Part shown: positions 14,501-33,502 of the stretch, one piece after another | Layout of the letters: each line of letters opens with the position of its first letter | Position numbering within the stretch: the stretch's first letter is position 1 | From: Elusimicrobiota bacterium | Lineage (GTDB): Bacteria > Elusimicrobiota > Elusimicrobia > UBA1565 | Length of the DNA stretch: 33,502 bases | Assembly (NCBI GenBank): GCA_043827405.1 | Contig: JBDRPD010000015.1 | Location: 1 to 33,502, forward strand | Reading direction: 5' to 3' | The notes under the pieces: model-generated | Database searches by the model: none | What the model saw: only the letters and a program-made list of their open reading frames with translations | What the model was told of the DNA's origin: nothing | Program-made: the position numbers and the translations under genes

Positions 14501-14568
14501 ATCTTCCAACTTGGCTGCGGGATGTATTAACGGTTCAGCGAGGGATCAATGCGCCCCCCTCAGTTCGA

Positions 14569-22198: not shown

Positions 22199-22278
22199 AT
22201 GAGTGTGGAGGCATTCTTCGCTACCTTAGAAAGCGCCGCGGCCTGACTTTGATGGAACTGGCCCGGCGAACTGACGTC
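22199..22278 (+). pseudogene. XRE-family HTH N-terminal fragment, frameshifted
   Basis: ATG AGT GT then GGILRYLRKRRGLTLMELARRTDV in another frame. Confidence 0.55.
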
Positions 22279-23322
22279 CTCAAGACCAGCTTCTACGATC
22301 TAGAGCAGCCGCAGGTCCTTGCGGAGTTTAACCGTTCCGATTAAGAGATTGTCGCCAGAATCAAGAGCTCCGGCGATGTCGTTTTTATCGACGAGTTCCA
22401 ATATCTGCGCAACGCTTCAAAAATTCTTAAAGCAGTCTATGACTCGTCGTCAAAAGTGAAGGTCTTCTCCTCCGGTTCATCGTCCATCGAGATACACAAG
22501 CATTTGAAGGAGAGCTTGGCGGGCCGCCGCCTCCTGTTTCGAATTCATCCGCTTCAGTATTCCGAGTTAAAAACCAAGCTTTCCATGCCCCTGACCCGCT
22601 ATCTATGTTACGGCGGGATGCCCGGCCTAACCCATACGGACTCCGCCGAGAGAAAGCGCTTGATCCTGTCGGAACTCCTGAGCGCCTATATCCTCAAGGA
22701 TGTGAAATCTCTTTTAAAGGAAGAGAACATCCGGGCTTTCAATCACCTTCTCTGCCTATTGGCTCAAAACCAGGGGTCCGTAGTCTCGGTCCATGCAATA
22801 GCCCAAGAAATCCAGATGAGCTCAAAGGCCGTCAACCGCTATCTGGAAATCCTCGAACAGACGTTCGTTAATTTCAGGGTGCATAGTTTTTCCAGAAACT
22901 TAGGAAACGAACTAAAAAAATCTTCGAAATACTACATGTATGATTCTGGCATTCGCAACGCGATCCTCAAGGACTTTTCGGCTCTGGGGGAGCGTACGGA
23001 CAAGGGCGCCATCTTGGAAGGATTCGTCTTTTTGCGGCTTCACACTCTGCTGGCCCCGAACGTGGAAATCAGGTTTTGGAGGACAAAGGACGGCGACGAG
23101 ATGGATTTCGTCCTGCTTAAGGATCGCAAACCCCTCCCGATCGAGGTAAAAAGCTCTCTTTCAAATCCTAAAGTCTCAAGGGGGCTAAGGCGTTTTCTCT
23201 TGCGCTATCCCGAGACCGCCAACGCCATCGTTGTCAACGAGCGGCATGACGCTACAGTGGCTTGTGGGAAATGCGCTGTAAGATTTTTGACGTTTGAAGC
23301 GTTTTCTTCTTTTACCCTTTAG
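22279..23322 (+). pseudogene. AAA+ ATPase with DUF4143 / nuclease-like C-terminus, 5'-truncated with internal stop
   Basis: Walker B VFIDEFQ, SGSSS, YGGMP, KYYMYDSGIRN, FWRTKDGDEMDFV, PIEVK. In-frame TAA at 22342-22344, Walker A missing. Confidence 0.85.
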
Positions 23323-23444: not shown

Positions 23445-23520
23445 AAACCGCCCCGGAAAATTCGAGGCGGCTCTTACATTTTTAAAATTTCTCCCCCGGT
23501 TGGACAAACTTCGAACTTGG
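23445..23520 (-). repeat. att-like site A: tRNA-Asn-like 3' fragment plus terminator
   Basis: Minus strand GTCCAACCGGGGGAG (23491-23505), then hairpin AGCCGCCTCG...CGGGGCGGTTT. Confidence 0.6.
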
Positions 23521-23787
23521 ATACGGGATGCGATGGCGGTTCAGCAAGGAATTGCTGAGCTGGAATCGATGAAATTTCCCTTCAGTTGATCCGGAAGCAT
23601 AGTTGGGAGCACCGAAGCGGCCTAACCTCACCTAGGTAACCTTACCCCCGGAGTCGAAATCCCGCGACTCAGTCGGGAAACCGTAAGGCATCATGGGCGC
23701 CATCTGGTTCGTCACATGAGCATCGCGATGGCGTTTATAGCGAAGAATAGGAGGAAGCTTTGCTGTGGCAGCTCGCATATCGTCAGC

Positions 23788-26087: not shown

Positions 26088-26176
26088 AAAAAGCCGCCCC
26101 GACAAACGTCGAGGCGGCTTCGTGATATTTAGTGTTATTTAAAGCAACTCCCCCAGTAGGACCAAAAGGGTAACTC
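26088..26176 (-). repeat. att-like site B: tRNA-Asn-like 3' fragment plus terminator
   Basis: Minus strand GTCCTACTGGGGGAG (26148-26162), then AAGCCGCCTCGAC-GTTT-GTCGGGGCGGCTTTTT. Confidence 0.65.
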
Positions 26177-26646
26177 TTAAAAGCACTGTAAATATAGACT
26201 ATTTTTTCCCGCCTGACCTTTCCTTAGCGCCTTTGGGCGAGCGAATCCGCTATTTGAGGCGCCGATTGAGGATAAACTACGCCGCAGCGGCGGCGGGCGC
26301 CGGCGTCAGCCCGAACACCTTGCTGCGCCTGGAACGCGGCGAAGGTCGGCCGCAGGATTGGACCATCAGCAGGCTTCTCCGCTACCTTGGGCGCGCGCTC
26401 AAGGAGGTCTTTCCGGGGGCCGAAGATGTGTACGACCTCATCATCCCGCCCAAGGACTTCGGCAGCTGGCTGCGCAATCTTCGATTGAGACGCGGCCTGC
26501 AGCAAAAGGAGCTTGCCGAAATCCTAGGACTTAGTAAGGTAAGCGTGTGCAGGTATGAGAAGAATATTGTCAAGCCGCAGGAAGCCATACTAAAACGACT
26601 CAGGAGGAGGTTTAGCCTTAATGGAGAATTCGAGCGCTACATATAG
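26149..26646 (+). CDS. Tandem double XRE-HTH protein, copy 1 (no convincing start codon)
   Basis: LGERIRYLRRR...GVSPNTLLRLERGE and FGSWLRNLRLRRGLQQKELAEILG...RYEKN. Homology to copy 2 starts at 26149; in-frame TAA at 26140; first usable start is TTG 26233 without an RBS. Confidence 0.75.
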   Translation, partial: SPSRTKRVTLKSTVNIDYFFPPDLSLAPLGERIRYLRRRLRINYAAAAAGAGVSPNTLLRLERGEGRPQDWTISRLLRYLGRALKEVFPGAEDVYDLIIPPKDFGSWLRNLRLRRGLQQKELAEILGLSKVSVCRYEKNIVKPQEAILKRLRRRFSLNGEFERYI

Positions 26647-26789
26647 TCCGGTCCCTCACGACCGGCAGCTAAGAAGAGACTGGTGGCCGCTTGCGCGGCG
26701 ACTGATCGTGGCGTCCGTTCTCGCGTCACAAGCCTATTGGGTCTTCGGGTGGCGGGTTCCTCTCGCGGATCTGCTGACGTTGGGGGGGA
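26621..26789 (+). pseudogene. Truncated copy of the membrane-protein gene at 29746-30168
   Basis: Near-identical translation up to ADLLTLGG, where similarity stops. Confidence 0.7.
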
Positions 26790-26825
26790 CCTCATCTCCA
26801 TGGAGGTCTGTTGCGTACAGAATCG

Positions 26826-27659
26826 TCATTCGCGGTGCTTGTAGCCCTTCTTGAAAGCGGCCAATAGCGCCAAGCCCTCTTTGCGCTTCTGCTCATCCAC
26901 GACATCGAGAACGCCTGCCGCTAAGATGTCTAGAAAGGGCGAATAGAGGTCCTTGGATTCACTTAGGAACCGAGCCACGCACTCTGCGGCCGCCTCGGAT
27001 GCCAGCGCCCCGACCTCCATGCCGAGCAGTACAGCTCCGGCGGTCGCATAGTCTTCATGCTCGATGCCCGGCTTGTTTGCTAGGTCGTAGCGCCGGTCGT
27101 CTTCGGTGCCGCCGACATAGTTTTGGAGCCAGTAGTCGATATCCTTGGCGTCGTCCTTATGTTTCTCTTTGCCCTGGGCTTTCCGATCCAGGAAGGCGAT
27201 GATCTTCAAAAGCACGAATCCCGGCACAGTGATCACCGAGACAGAGGGGCCGTCCTCTAGTTTGACCTTGCTCGCCGCGGCGCAGACCTCATCGAACCCT
27301 ACTACCGACATCTCGAATTCCGACTTCGGCCAGACCAAGGTCCCGCCCGGCGCAATCTCAGCACCATAAGGGATCAAATCCACCATCGCGGTCCTGCGAT
27401 GCAGCCGATGCTCAATGCTCCGATCGGGTTCGAACTTGCAATCAGGCCCGAGCAGCTTCTCGCGGAGCTTCTCATAGGTCGGCCAGTCGCGCACGCGCAC
27501 TCCAAAATCGGCATCGTTGGTCCTGCGGAATTGTGGGTAATCGGAACCTTTTTCGGGTGTGAGCTCCGTCATCAACGCGCCGACCAAAACGACTTCAACT
27601 CCCAGCCCTTCGGCGGCTCGGCAAACGTCCCTGACGACTTCCGTAAGTCCACTATCCAT
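26826..27659 (-). CDS. Nucleotidyltransferase, AbiEii-like type IV toxin
   Basis: VLVGA...RRTNDADFGV, VDLIPYG, GFVLLKIIAFLDR, KDDAKDI. Confidence 0.82.
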   Translation of the reverse strand: MDSGLTEVVRDVCRAAEGLGVEVVLVGALMTELTPEKGSDYPQFRRTNDADFGVRVRDWPTYEKLREKLLGPDCKFEPDRSIEHRLHRRTAMVDLIPYGAEIAPGGTLVWPKSEFEMSVVGFDEVCAAASKVKLEDGPSVSVITVPGFVLLKIIAFLDRKAQGKEKHKDDAKDIDYWLQNYVGGTEDDRRYDLANKPGIEHEDYATAGAVLLGMEVGALASEAAAECVARFLSESKDLYSPFLDILAAGVLDVVDEQKRKEGLALLAAFKKGYKHRE

Positions 27660-28707
27660 TGGTGACCTTGGGTTCTATGAAGCGTTCGTAGATCATCTGA
27701 GCCGTCTCAGCTTCGCGCGCGCCGCCGGCCTCTAGAAGCTCCGCGTAGATCAGAAGCGGCGTCGCCAGAGGCCATGGCCCCTGGGTTTCATCCCCCACGG
27801 CTGCCGTTCCGAACAGACGCAGCAAAGTGACATTTCCGCCTGCTTCATCGCGGAGCATGGGCTCCTGCTTGAGGGCTTCTCTTGCCCGATCATTCACGAA
27901 GAGCGTGATTGCATCCGGCTCAAGATAATGAGTCAGCTCACGAGCGGCCATCCCGCCGGTGATCGCCCAGCGGCCTTCTCCCATGTTGGCAAAACGAAGG
28001 GCGAAGTCATCCACGATTTCCTCGGGTTTGCGCGCCTTGTGCCGGTAGCGTCCCAGGAGGCATGTCGGACGCAGCTTTAGCGCATACCCCCGCACGAAGA
28101 GCTCGATCAGTGCCTTGATATCCCCGAATCGGCGCTTGCCTTTGGCCGCAGGCAAGATCCACTGCCGCCGCTTGAGTTCCCGCATGACCGCATGTACGGT
28201 CGCTAGGCCGACACCGGCTTGTTCAGCGATCGTCCGCAAGGGATCGCCCACTGCGGGCGGATGGGTCAGCAGGTAGTGGACGACCTTCAAGCCTCCAGGC
28301 TGGATCAGCCTACCGGGCTCAGTCTTGAGCGGACGATCAGGCTTCTTCCCGCGGATATCCACGACCACATGCGGAGGCTTTCGGATGAAGATGTTTCCCT
28401 GCGCGTCAACGAAGAATACCCCGGCTTTACGGAACTCCTCTGCGACCGGCTCTGGAATCCAATCCGCGAAAAGCACGGCCTCGCCCGCCAGGGGTCTCAT
28501 ATGGAGGATGATGTGGCCTGCCTGGTTTCTAGTTGTGGGCTGGGCTTTGGCCTCGCCAGTCAAATTTAGGGGTGGCCTTGTGCCGATGTGGAGGAAGAAA
28601 TCATGGGGCCCCCTGTTGATTTGGTCCAGATCTACGGGCAGATCGGGGCCTAGGGCATCCCGGAGGTGTCCAAGGCAAGCCTGGATGAATGGGGTCATGT
28701 TCCGCAT
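27652..28707 (-). CDS. AbiEi-family type IV antitoxin / winged-helix regulator
   Basis: FVDAQGNIFI, HTH LRTIAEQAGVGLATVH, WAITGG.AA..LT.YL.P, ATPLLIYAELL, ARE.ETA. Overlaps the toxin start. Confidence 0.82.
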   Translation of the reverse strand: MRNMTPFIQACLGHLRDALGPDLPVDLDQINRGPHDFFLHIGTRPPLNLTGEAKAQPTTRNQAGHIILHMRPLAGEAVLFADWIPEPVAEEFRKAGVFFVDAQGNIFIRKPPHVVVDIRGKKPDRPLKTEPGRLIQPGGLKVVHYLLTHPPAVGDPLRTIAEQAGVGLATVHAVMRELKRRQWILPAAKGKRRFGDIKALIELFVRGYALKLRPTCLLGRYRHKARKPEEIVDDFALRFANMGEGRWAITGGMAARELTHYLEPDAITLFVNDRAREALKQEPMLRDEAGGNVTLLRLFGTAAVGDETQGPWPLATPLLIYAELLEAGGAREAETAQMIYERFIEPKVTNG

Positions 28708-28762
28708 ATCGCCTCTGTTCCGTTATATGGAACAGTATAAATTACGGAACATATTTTGTCAA
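28697..28762 (-). promoter_or_regulatory. TA promoter with four nested TGTTCC operator boxes
   Basis: TTGACA (28757-28762), 17 nt, TATACT (28734-28739). Boxes at 28698, 28716, 28728 and 28745. Confidence 0.8.
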
Positions 28763-28857
28763 TAGCAAATATTCTATTAGTAAAAACAAGCAAAATCGCA
28801 AGTCCAGCCGGCTGCGCCTTGCTTTCTTGGTAAACCCACGCTAGAGTCATGGAGTAA

Positions 28858-28975
28858 GTGGCTTCATATCTCGAACGCTTCACTGAGCATCTTGCCCGGC
28901 AGCGCCGGTACTTCCTTCGTAGCATCGAGACCTATGGCTACGCGGTCAAAGCGTATCTGGCCTCTCTCGCCTCCA
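28858..28975 (+). pseudogene. XerC/XerD-like tyrosine recombinase N-terminal fragment
   Basis: YLERFTEHLARQRRY..RSIETYGYAVKAYL matches the integrase N-terminal SAM-like pattern. No catalytic domain follows. Confidence 0.55.
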
Positions 28976-29105
28976 GGGCCAGCCCCGCTTCTTCCATCTC
29001 TCCAACAATTCTCGTTGCTTTCACAGGTACGTCCTCCTCCGCCCTACTCACTAATTCCGGAACCTAAATCTGTCTCATCTTATCTTGGCAAAAAGGGAGG
29101 CGGCG

Positions 29106-29771
29106 ATGCGGCTTGAGGCCGCTGAGAACCGTAGAGAGGAAAACCATGCAAAAAAGTTCAGTGCCCTACCTGCAGGGGCAAGTAAGACCAAAAGGGTAAC
29201 TGGACAAAAAAGTCATAAAAAATCGGCCCTTCCCAATTCAGGGAAGGGCCGAAGTTACCCTATCCAAAGATTCTCCCCAGGTAGGACGAAAAGGGGAACA
29301 CTGAAAACCGTCGTAAATATCGACGGAATCCTTCCACCAGACCTGCGCACGGCCTCGCTGGGCGAGAAAATCCGCTATGTCCGGCGCCGTTTGGGGCTCT
29401 CATGTAAGGAACTCGCACGCCGCGCCGGGATCGGAAACAACACCCTGACGCGGCTTGAGAGGGGGGAGGGTAAGGCGATCGACGCGGTGGTCGGCCGCGT
29501 CCTCCGGGCGCTCGGACCCGCCCTGGCCGAGGCATTTCCCGGGACTCAGGACATCTTCGACCTGCTTTTTCCATCCACGAGCTTCGGAGATTGGCTGCGC
29601 AACTTTCGGCTGCGCCGAGGCCTCCAGCAGAGGGAACTTGCCGAAATTCTAGGACTTAATAAGGTAAGCGTGTGCAGGTATGAGAAGAATATTGTCAAGC
29701 CGCAGGAAGCCATACTAAAACGACTCAGGAGGAAATTCAATCTCAATGGGGAATTCGAGCGCTACTTATAG
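29106..29771 (+). CDS. Tandem double XRE-HTH protein, copy 2, with N-terminal leader crossing att-like sites C and D
   Basis: AAGGGAGG RBS 5 nt before ATG 29106. Two HTH domains; paralogous to 26149-26646. Confidence 0.78.
   Translation: MRLEAAENRREENHAKKFSALPAGASKTKRVTGQKSHKKSALPNSGKGRSYPIQRFSPGRTKRGTLKTVVNIDGILPPDLRTASLGEKIRYVRRRLGLSCKELARRAGIGNNTLTRLERGEGKAIDAVVGRVLRALGPALAEAFPGTQDIFDLLFPSTSFGDWLRNFRLRRGLQQRELAEILGLNKVSVCRYEKNIVKPQEAILKRLRRKFNLNGEFERYL
29173..29201 (-). repeat. att-like site C
   Basis: AGTAAGACCAAAAGGGTAACT (29181-29201) matches site B 26155-26175 at 20 of 21 positions; the left half differs. Confidence 0.6.
29216..29302 (-). repeat. att-like site D: tRNA-Asn-like 3' fragment plus terminator
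   Basis: Minus strand GTCCTACCTGGGGAG (29273-29287), then a perfect 12-bp hairpin (29223-29252) and T run. Confidence 0.65.
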
Positions 29772-30168
29772 CACAGTCCCACACGACCAACAGCTGAGAA
29801 GAGACTGGTGGCCGCTTACACGGCTGCTGATCGTGGCGTCCGTTCTCGCGTCACAAGCCTACTGGGCCTTTGGGTGGCGGGTTCCTCTCGCGGATCTGCC
29901 GGCGCTGGGGGGGAGAATCTTGACGGCTATGTTCGGTATGGCGCTTATATCCGGCGCGCTGGTTTATCTCTGCGCTCTGCTTCTCATGTTGTTGCTGTTG
30001 GCCTTCATATTGATGAACGGCTACAGCTACGACGCCTGCTACTGGACGTTCCGAAACATTTTCAGGCTTCGATCCCACCGTCTTCGCGCAGGCTTCTCGC
30101 TCGCGGGAGAACTCGCTCTCTTTGTCTACGGTTTCTTCTTGCTACGCTGCCTTCTCGCCGTGTTATAA
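29746..30168 (+). CDS. Small hypothetical membrane protein (3-4 TM)
   Basis: Hydrophobic ORF overlapping the end of the HTH gene; its N-terminus is conserved in copy 1. Confidence 0.65.
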   Translation: MGNSSATYSTVPHDQQLRRDWWPLTRLLIVASVLASQAYWAFGWRVPLADLPALGGRILTAMFGMALISGALVYLCALLLMLLLLAFILMNGYSYDACYWTFRNIFRLRSHRLRAGFSLAGELALFVYGFFLLRCLLAVL

Positions 30169-31088: not shown

Positions 31089-32099
31089 TCAAGCGTTTTG
31101 GGACTTTTCTCCGTCATTTGATCTTTGCGACTCGAGCCGCCGAGCTCGGTTATATTCCTTCCGTCTTTGAAGCGTCTGCCGCTTAATCTCGGCTCTCCGC
31201 TTCAATATCTCATCCATCCGCCCCGCGTAGACATCATCAGGGCAGACGTTCTTCAACTTCTCACGCGGCGTCTTATTGTGCGCTTCCACTGCTGCCGCGA
31301 CCGCCTCCCTCAACTCCTCCGGCGAGCAGTAGACCAGGAGCCGCACTCGCCCCTTGATCTTCTTGTTCACCGCCTCCACCTTTCCCTGCGTCTGAGGATG
31401 GTAAGGACGCCCGAAGATGTGCCGGATGCCGTGCAGCCCTAGATATTGCCGCAACTGCGACCCCGTGAAGCCAGGGCCGTTGTCCGAAAGCAGCAACGGC
31501 TTCTCTTTGAGCTCATGGCCGGCTGCTCGGGCCGCCTCCATCGCCTCTTCCACCGCGTCGGCGATCGACAGCGAGGATTCGTCCGGCATGACCGGCATCG
31601 CCAGAATCTTACGCGAGTAGTCGTCGACGACCGGGATGGCTTTGTAATAACCCCAACCGGCGACGAACATGTTGGTCCCGTCGCACTGCCAGATCTGGTC
31701 GGGAGCTGTCGTCTTGTGCTGCCATTCCTTCTTCGCAGGCAGGTCTGCGAGCGCGCGAGGCTCGATGAGGCCGCGGGCCTTCAGCATCCGAAACAGCGTC
31801 GATTCCGATACCGCGATCTTGTCCTCGTCGAGGAGCTTCGTCGAAAGCAGTCTCGGGCTCAATTCGGGGTGAGCCTTCGCTACTTCCAATGAGCGCTTCT
31901 CTTCTTCGGGAAGAAGCTTCATCCAGGAATCCGGCGGACCGCCTTTCCGTTCAAGGCCTTTGATCCCGCCCTTCTCGTAGTTCTTCCGCCAGCGATAGAA
32001 GGTTGAGCGAGGGATCTTCGTGGCCACGAGCCGTTTTTCGCGTCCGCGTCCTCCAGATTCTACCGCTTCTACGAGCCCCGCGCGCTCCACAGCCTTCAT
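31089..32099 (-). CDS. IS3-family transposase OrfB (DDE integrase core)
   Basis: WQCD, VVDDYSR, LLSDNG, PYHPQTQGKVE. Confidence 0.9.
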   Translation of the reverse strand: MKAVERAGLVEAVESGGRGREKRLVATKIPRSTFYRWRKNYEKGGIKGLERKGGPPDSWMKLLPEEEKRSLEVAKAHPELSPRLLSTKLLDEDKIAVSESTLFRMLKARGLIEPRALADLPAKKEWQHKTTAPDQIWQCDGTNMFVAGWGYYKAIPVVDDYSRKILAMPVMPDESSLSIADAVEEAMEAARAAGHELKEKPLLLSDNGPGFTGSQLRQYLGLHGIRHIFGRPYHPQTQGKVEAVNKKIKGRVRLLVYCSPEELREAVAAAVEAHNKTPREKLKNVCPDDVYAGRMDEILKRRAEIKRQTLQRRKEYNRARRLESQRSNDGEKSQNA

Positions 32100-32497
32100 C
32101 CTTCGGTGCCAGCCTCGCCCGATACGCTCAGACTTTTTTTAAAAAGCGCCAGTTGGAGCGCGTGCTCTGCCAGGAGTTCCTTGAGCTGGCTATTCTCGCG
32201 CTTCAGGCTCTTCACCTCGGCCGCGTTAGCCTGACGCAGACTATCGCCCTTAAGCCGCGCCTTGCCGGCCTCCATGAAGTCCTTGAGCCAACTGTAATAA
32301 AGCGCCGACGAGATGCCTTCCCGGCGACAGAGGTCTGCGATCGAGACCTCTCGCTTCATCCCTTCGATGATGATCCGAATCTTTTCTTCAGCCTGAAACT
32401 TCTTCCTCGTCCGACGCCGCACACGCTTCAGGAAATGATCCGCGGTGGGCGCTACAGCCTTATCTCCATTTCCAGCTACCTGAACTGCTGTTTCCAT
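32096..32497 (-). CDS. IS3-family transposase OrfA (HTH)
   Basis: RKKFQAEEKIRII...IADLCRREGIS..LYYSW.KDFMEAGK. A7 slippery run at 32134-32140, with the -1 frame open into orfB. Confidence 0.9.
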   Translation of the reverse strand: METAVQVAGNGDKAVAPTADHFLKRVRRRTRKKFQAEEKIRIIIEGMKREVSIADLCRREGISSALYYSWLKDFMEAGKARLKGDSLRQANAAEVKSLKRENSQLKELLAEHALQLALFKKSLSVSGEAGTEG

Positions 32498-33381: not shown

Positions 33382-33418
33382 CCAAGAGGCGGCGTCCCGA
33401 TAGCTGGAGAAATTTAAA

Positions 33419-33488
33419 AAGCGTAACCTCTGGTTGATGAAATCAACTTAGGCCAGTTAGAGCTGGCCGACACCGAGAGGTTACGCTT
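33419..33488. other. Branched inverted-repeat element (three-way junction), possible atypical attC
   Basis: Perfect 13-bp stem AAGCGTAACCTCT/AGAGGTTACGCTT enclosing two hairpins. Confidence 0.5.
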
Positions 33489-33502
33489 AATGAATGGTAC
33501 CA

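Follow-up and report, generated by a model that had tools for sequence, protein, structure and literature searches.

Can a reading frame that has no start codon of its own be the severed end of another gene? This question is raised by a 33,502-nucleotide stretch of an Elusimicrobiota bacterium genome (assembly GCA_043827405.1, contig JBDRPD010000015.1, positions 1 to 33,502; contig C15 of the genome and here called the window), in which two frames, copy 1 and copy 2, each encode a pair of helix-turn-helix (HTH) domains and begin at sites resembling recombination attachment (att) sites, termed B and D. We propose that both frames are probably orphaned C-terminal modules of large serine recombinases (LSRs), detached by integration and rejoined by excision or tandem integration. 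None of the 35 open reading frames (ORFs) scanned in the window is a recombinase gene, and only a tyrosine-recombinase remnant and insertion sequence (IS) genes are present; the unit has no LSR gene inside the window, the contig ends before any tRNA, and the join to contig C84 of the same genome is absent from the assembly.

Double-HTH frames at att-like junctions

The initial annotation of this DNA had claimed that copy 1 contains an in-frame TAA followed by 28 codons without ATG, GTG or TTG, that copy 2 is open from an ATG through two sites, C and D, and that similarity between the two genes starts at the sites themselves; reading the frames bore out all three statements. In copy 1 the TAA occupies 26140-26142, the frame is then open from 26143 to 26646, and its first potential start is a TTG at 26233, 28 codons past the S of the motif SPSRTKR (26194 holds an ATA). 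The frame of copy 2 extends without a stop from the ATG at 29106 across C and D to 29771. The 21-nt motif shared by the sites lies at 26155, 29181 and 29280, with 99 nt between C and D. Across the linker that joins the site to the HTH domains, 18 of 29 residues are identical between the copies, versus 19 of 60 bases just upstream. Linker differences distribute over the three codon positions as 9/7/15, and the bias persists over the 20 codons past the arm of the site (7/5/13). B and D share one geometry: both read as a tRNA 3' end in antisense (core CTCC) that gives way to a different arm, and each is preceded by a hairpin with a minus-strand U-tract. Both copies carry two HTH_3/HTH_31 domains, and the predicted structure of the module consists of two five-helix domains (pLDDT, the predicted local distance difference test score, 82), which agrees with an XRE fold of the Cro/C1 type; a fold search with the module returned weak XRE matches only, none at E <= 0.001.

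Among 401 genomes of the phylum, 18 proved to carry homologues of the module, the present genome being one of them and most belonging to the same order; others occur in metagenome contigs. We first kept 53 distinct junctions, dropping 13 match rows without an anchor and 4 with too little upstream DNA; removal of 6 junctions without a recognisable core (two G010 copies among them) and one duplicate left 46 that begin at the same point, a recurrence beyond chance, the window's two included, all of them kin with several per genome, such that counts overstate their independence. From junction to HTH, 44 of the 46 linkers stay open in the HTH frame, as compared with 22 of 92 readings in the other frames and 18 of 45 stretches of 30 codons upstream, and over 75 pairs its differences by codon position are 0.27/0.22/0.39. 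The linker is under coding constraint, and it lacks a common start: 19 of the 46 have no ATG, GTG or TTG up to the HTH, ATG occurs in 4, neither start codon nor position is shared, and the L of "LGE", named in the initial annotation as a candidate for a conserved independent start, is TTG in only 5. By reading frame, which we denote by the motifs WL and GS, 28 junctions are WL, 14 are GS (the window's class) and 4 are damaged, two rows having been retyped by eye; the distance from core to HTH is exactly 96 nt in 27 of the 28 WL-frame junctions. A duplicated module with three or four HTH domains occurs in P0004, P0006 and L076. The viral contigs searched held no relative, and the ESM Atlas gave no usable match.

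Recombinase tails, tRNA ends and a proposed mechanism

The idea that the double HTH is a swappable C-terminal module, with a recombinase as its N-terminus to the left of the site, is upheld by natural proteins in which serine recombinases are fused to homologues at this motif. Protein P0161 (677 residues), one of 10 proteins recovered among 5199 candidates in a search for longer forms, contains Resolvase (16-163), Recombinase and zinc-ribbon domains followed by HTH domains at 540-598 and 620-669, and its module shares 48-49% identity with the two copies in the window. In P0015 (262 residues, partial), an LSR tail first recognised by eye and 70% identical to the LSR of G326, which ends at tRNA-Gln, is joined via the WL motif to the module. 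The two proteins are 80% identical from the junction onward and have no match before it; the catalytic (serine), recombinase and zinc-ribbon domains all precede the att site. In-frame remnants of LSR tails were also found before three further modules: P0005, whose module is 69% identical to copy 1 (remnant L227-like, E 7e-4 among 94 LSRs), L007 (L216-like) and L066. A profile search of 1.84 billion representatives left four LSR queries unmatched among the 154 proteins then collected, and a single-sequence model of P0161 (pLDDT 39.6) was unusable. In one case, L191 compared with L244, a WL-class LSR tail remnant appears one base shorter before a GS-frame module, which brings the two into frame.

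Modules are swapped between recombinases in a second kind as well. A ParB-like HTH module (weak Pfam match) is fused to an LSR in P0162 and in the genome locus L185, where the modules are 82% and the LSRs 27% identical. Beyond the att site the module comprises 130-170 residues of either kind, double XRE or ParB-like. The ParB-like module likewise begins at att junctions (L185, L275, L273, L312, L313, L324), with LSR fusion in two genome loci.

The genome has two LSRs, both outside the window, on contigs C84 and C59. The frame of the C84 LSR runs into an antisense tRNA-Asn and stops there, and many fetched LSR loci across the order likewise terminate within an antisense tRNA (Asn, Gln, His, Asp, Met, Ser or Glu), with three frames represented; of 57 distinct LSR junction arms, 34 use the WL frame, 21 the GS frame and 2 the third (C59 added by hand). 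When we searched with a profile of module arms whose training set included B and D and excluded the C84 and C59 LSR tails, these two tails were the best matches after B and D, on the opposite strand, indicating that in this clade the element's attachment site (attP) is quasi-palindromic and overlaps the LSR end. An attP of about 50 bp, with inverted half-sites around a central dinucleotide, can be made out clearly in one LSR clade and in two complete elements; against the pooled arm profile, just 1 of 35 LSR arms and 4 of the 42 left arms of modules score as mirrors, and B and D have degenerate left arms. The target is established by L075, where a window-type module sits 3.6 kb before a tRNA-Asn. 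Tandem units bounded by displaced RNA-gene 3' ends are seen at sites A, B and D of the window and in the arrays L034, L036 and L075. The genome's tRNA-Asn(GTT) carries an insertion of 521 nt that contains a match to a group I intron (G000:C84:35154-35749; L319:1175-1459), and in L075 the tRNA end is cut short at that very position. A relaxase guessed in the C84 element was dropped for want of Pfam support.

In the mechanism that we propose, attP would be a quasi-palindrome of about 50 bp situated within the final codons of the LSR gene. On integration at a tRNA 3' end, here tRNA-Asn, the catalytic and DNA-binding LSR would remain on the tRNA side with its stop in the antisense tRNA, and the linker and double HTH would be stranded, without a start codon, at the far end of the element. 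Excision would rejoin LSR and module in frame, and tandem integration would join the LSR of one element to the module of another. The crossover point and the circular form are presumed, and the window would represent decayed units in tandem, without an LSR, so arranged that their modules probably have no partner in place. Copy 1 is then probably silent, and copy 2 is possibly translated from a chance ATG.

What might the tail do? The regulated object is more likely the integrase itself than a separate regulator. An HTH_17 gene lies upstream of the C84 LSR and is presumably its directionality factor. If the fusion forms, the tail may let the free integrase bind additional operator DNA of the element, favor integration and damp its own expression, leaving excision to the tail-less integrated form and the HTH_17 gene; we hold this role to be a serious possibility, at a little under even chances. 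Broader and more tentative is the suggestion that such integrases could form an undescribed, widespread serine class with two recombination-made isoforms, a long free form with a DNA-binding tail across attP and a short integrated form. In such a class the tail would set direction or expression, come in interchangeable kinds and be shuffled between families by tandem integration, and an incoming element would reprogramme the resident integrase.

Frame tests and competing explanations

Reconstruction of attP with the nearest integrase, and a check of its frame, gave a divided outcome. The genome's own tRNA-Asn LSR, on C84, is out of frame with the window and is probably not the cognate integrase of B and D, whereas a relative's tRNA-Asn LSR, L227, fits. 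L227 is read in the GS frame, belongs to the same clade (47-50% identity) and is the best of the 57 arms at mirroring the B arm (14 of 16 bases). Over the distal bases of B the mirror scores are 12 of 12 for L227, 8 for C84 and 8 for C59; those of D are 10, 7 and 9, respectively. We searched 11 LSRs for a mirror-matched left end: two gave sites at 13-14 of 16 bases, two gave weak unrelated matches and seven, L216, L227 and L135 among them, gave none. The two successful LSRs yielded one and three sites, and all four are open for 128-156 codons, encoding the ParB-like module, only in their own LSR's frame; none has a start in the first 48 codons, and random positions are open as far in 22-30%. 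At the ParB-like sites attP is translated with the integrase and the frame kept in 4 of 4, and L227 together with P0005 suggests the same for the window's class. A pattern for the clade's tRNA-Asn arm matched 2 of 401 genomes. Two contigs that carry a module and an other-frame LSR, G176:C12 and G320:C60, were rejected as cognate pairs, another junction lying in between.

Several observations weigh against orphaned LSR tails. In the WL frame of the C84 LSR, B and D run into a stop within four codons, and when mirror matching is scored over 16 bases, a WL-frame LSR comes out as the best partner for 12 of the 14 GS-frame modules, among them D. An element complete with both a double-HTH left end and its LSR was not found, nor was any longer form of copy 1 among 2706 candidates. 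P0161 and P0015 each come from a single Logan contig and carry LSR families outside the clade whose arms mirror the module, for which reason they look like tandem chimeras. None of the nine units running from a module to a tRNA contains an LSR. In the fetched DNA just one LSR sits immediately upstream of a module (G010, L051), and it stops before that module; the distant G010 homologue 3' of it has its own ATG.

The LSR-less units invite another explanation, in which double-HTH units are non-autonomous cassettes, at no time equipped with an LSR, that integrate directly 3' of a resident helper LSR, append a tail to it and so redirect or silence it. Arrays of up to five modules without an LSR would suit such satellites, as would the appearance of one module type on two unrelated LSR families in the two fusions. 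We nevertheless regard satellites as unlikely: the arms mirror the tails of one LSR clade, the ParB-like sister module occurs in complete elements with their LSR, an LSR adjoining a module is rare in genomes (one locus, unfused), and L049 retains the pair of genes found ahead of the LSR in the C84 element but lacks the LSR itself, as after a deletion. Quite improbable, in our view, is an ordinary element repressor by attL that uses weak or non-canonical starts and whose fusions are accidental read-through. Its plain tandem XRE fold, the ATG of the G010 homologue and the window's own TTG 26233 and ATG 29106 would all be expected of such a stand-alone gene, and the first nine linker codons are under DNA-level constraint anyway; yet the constraint continues over 20 codons past the arm, the start is not common to the junctions, the spacing from core to HTH is fixed within one frame class, and the four sister sites are all in frame with their mirror-matched LSR.

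The least probable explanation, by now largely refuted, is that recombination among B, C and D places a short dedicated leader on the HTH module and thereby turns a regulator on or off. In its favor, copy 2 is open from its ATG through C and D, and of the two breaks in contigs of sequencing run X1, a possible source of this DNA, at 29068-29097 and 29247-29276, the second falls on the last base of the D core, with lower depth to its right; this fits a fork at the crossover of which only one branch is seen. The "strong" ribosome-binding site (RBS) that the initial annotation saw before 29106 is indeed purine-rich, but it straddles the end, at 29097, of an IS3 remnant: 28961-29097 corresponds to the left terminus of an IS3-type element, which has varied flanks in relatives. 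The leader is a mosaic of this IS3 end, 70 unassigned nt, a lone arm and a terminator, with no conserved counterpart in 101 genomes of the order, and can hardly be a designed alternative N-terminus. Nor does C qualify as a second att site, consisting of an arm alone without the CTCC core. Arm-plus-hairpin units like C-D occur in L050, L066 and, more weakly, L076, with L038 recognised by eye. A resemblance between the MRLE of the leader and a small C84 gene could not be substantiated. In RNA run X2, a short contig aligns to 29097-29163 with 9 differences and points to a related sequence in the community; the HTH frames have no coverage in the two RNA runs compared.

Known systems and the rest of the window

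How do orphaned tails compare with integrase systems already described? In the ssrA islands of Dehalococcoides, the 3' end of the LSR gene dsiB overlaps attL and its stop lies only beyond the island, and the authors speculate that the gene is complete only on the circle or beside a neighbouring island (McMurdie et al. 2011, PMC3146451). Both systems have an LSR frame that crosses att and ends in the target RNA gene or a neighbour, and tandem arrays at the 3' end of a stable RNA. In contrast, the accessible part of that paper identifies no domain beyond the site, where we find a DNA-binding module with fusions and swaps, and the targets here are tRNA-Asn/His/Gln/fMet rather than ssrA. The SSV-type "suicidal" tyrosine integrases of archaea have attP within the gene, translated, sometimes in differing frames (Badel et al. 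2020, PMC7253208). They share with the present system attP inside the integrase gene, tRNA targets and hybrids of N- and C-parts; however, the tyrosine enzyme is split into inactive Int(N) and Int(C), whereas here a serine recombinase would lose only an accessory HTH module, and tandem arrays are common here.

Mycobacteriophage BPs has attP in its repressor gene, from whose product integration strips a short tag for degradation (Broussard and Hatfull 2013, PMC3694055). There too recombination at an attP in coding sequence gives two protein forms, a switch, but at the 3' end of a repressor and with a degradation tag, as opposed to an integrase gene and whole HTH domains with the site at the 5' end of the HTH frame. 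Engineered integrase fusions to a recombination directionality factor (RDF) demonstrate that a C-terminal domain is able to inhibit a serine integrase or to switch its direction (Olorunniji et al. 2017, PMC5737554; PMC12286644); unlike the present XRE- or ParB-like module, which gives no sign of RDF activity, these are artificial. The accessible part of PMC12884075 held nothing bearing on the HTH-tail question. In the open literature, with subscription papers and supplements outside its scope, we found no description of whole HTH modules joined to serine integrases across att. Most likely, then, the system is a variant of the integrase-gene-splitting systems, of a design hinted at earlier.

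Such tails would give a concrete answer to the question posed by DsiB-type integrases, namely what lies past att for an integrase without its own stop codon, and would account for start-less "XRE regulators" at island edges. They would also offer a natural route for shuffling DNA-binding domains onto recombinases. If many serine integrases mined as editing tools are annotated as the integrated form, without the tail, misjudgments of their activity and directionality may follow.

Table 1. Features of the att-bounded units in the window
Feature	Position	Strand	Remark
Third HTH module of the same family, fragment	22201..22347	+	HTH_31, E 1.3e-5
Site A, older putative att junction (tRNA-end core x arm); opens only a 33-codon tail; hairpin in front	23488..23589	+	att reading suggested by homologous junctions
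Unit with its left end at site A: methyltransferase, APC permease, PadR; no LSR	from 23488..23589		
GC hairpin with minus-strand U-tract, terminator-like for an antisense tRNA transcript	26091..26121	-	-26.7 kcal/mol over 65 nt; putative function
Site B: antisense tRNA-Asn-type core (CTCC 26148-26151) and integrase half-site arm (26152-26175)	26145..26175	+	
Copy 1: start-less module, 29-codon linker and two XRE-type HTH domains	26146..26646	+	
Truncated copy of the small membrane-protein gene found 3' of copy 2	26645..26788	+	tblastn, 69% over 45 residues
Cargo: AbiEi-type antitoxin (27652-28707) and partner gene (weak PDC-M21B match)	26826..28707	-	
Tyrosine recombinase 5'-end remnant	28813..28988	+	Phage_int_SAM_1, E 2e-4
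IS3-family left end (remnant); last bases form part of the RBS of the copy 2 ATG	28961..29097	-	family label from rve-type transposase pair in L253, by eye
Copy 2 leader, 55 codons, in frame	29106..29270	+	not conserved in relatives
C-D mini-unit: lone arm C (29178-29201, no core), hairpin (29223-29253), degenerate left arm of D and core	29178..29276	+	
Site D: core CTCC 29273-29276 and arm 29277-29300	29270..29300	+	
Copy 2: same linker and double XRE-HTH module	29271..29771	+	67% identity to copy 1
Small membrane-protein gene; also 3' of the LSR junction on contig C59 and of other modules	29746..30168	+	

Beyond these features (Table 1), a 77% copy of the site A arm, without a core, lies at 14503-14546, 3' of a molybdate-transporter gene. 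The G+C content drops from about 11 kb onward, and the island array may extend much further left. To the right, an rve-type IS occupies 31089-32497, and the contig end at 33388-33502 is common to the starts of contigs C24 and C5 and is probably another IS end.

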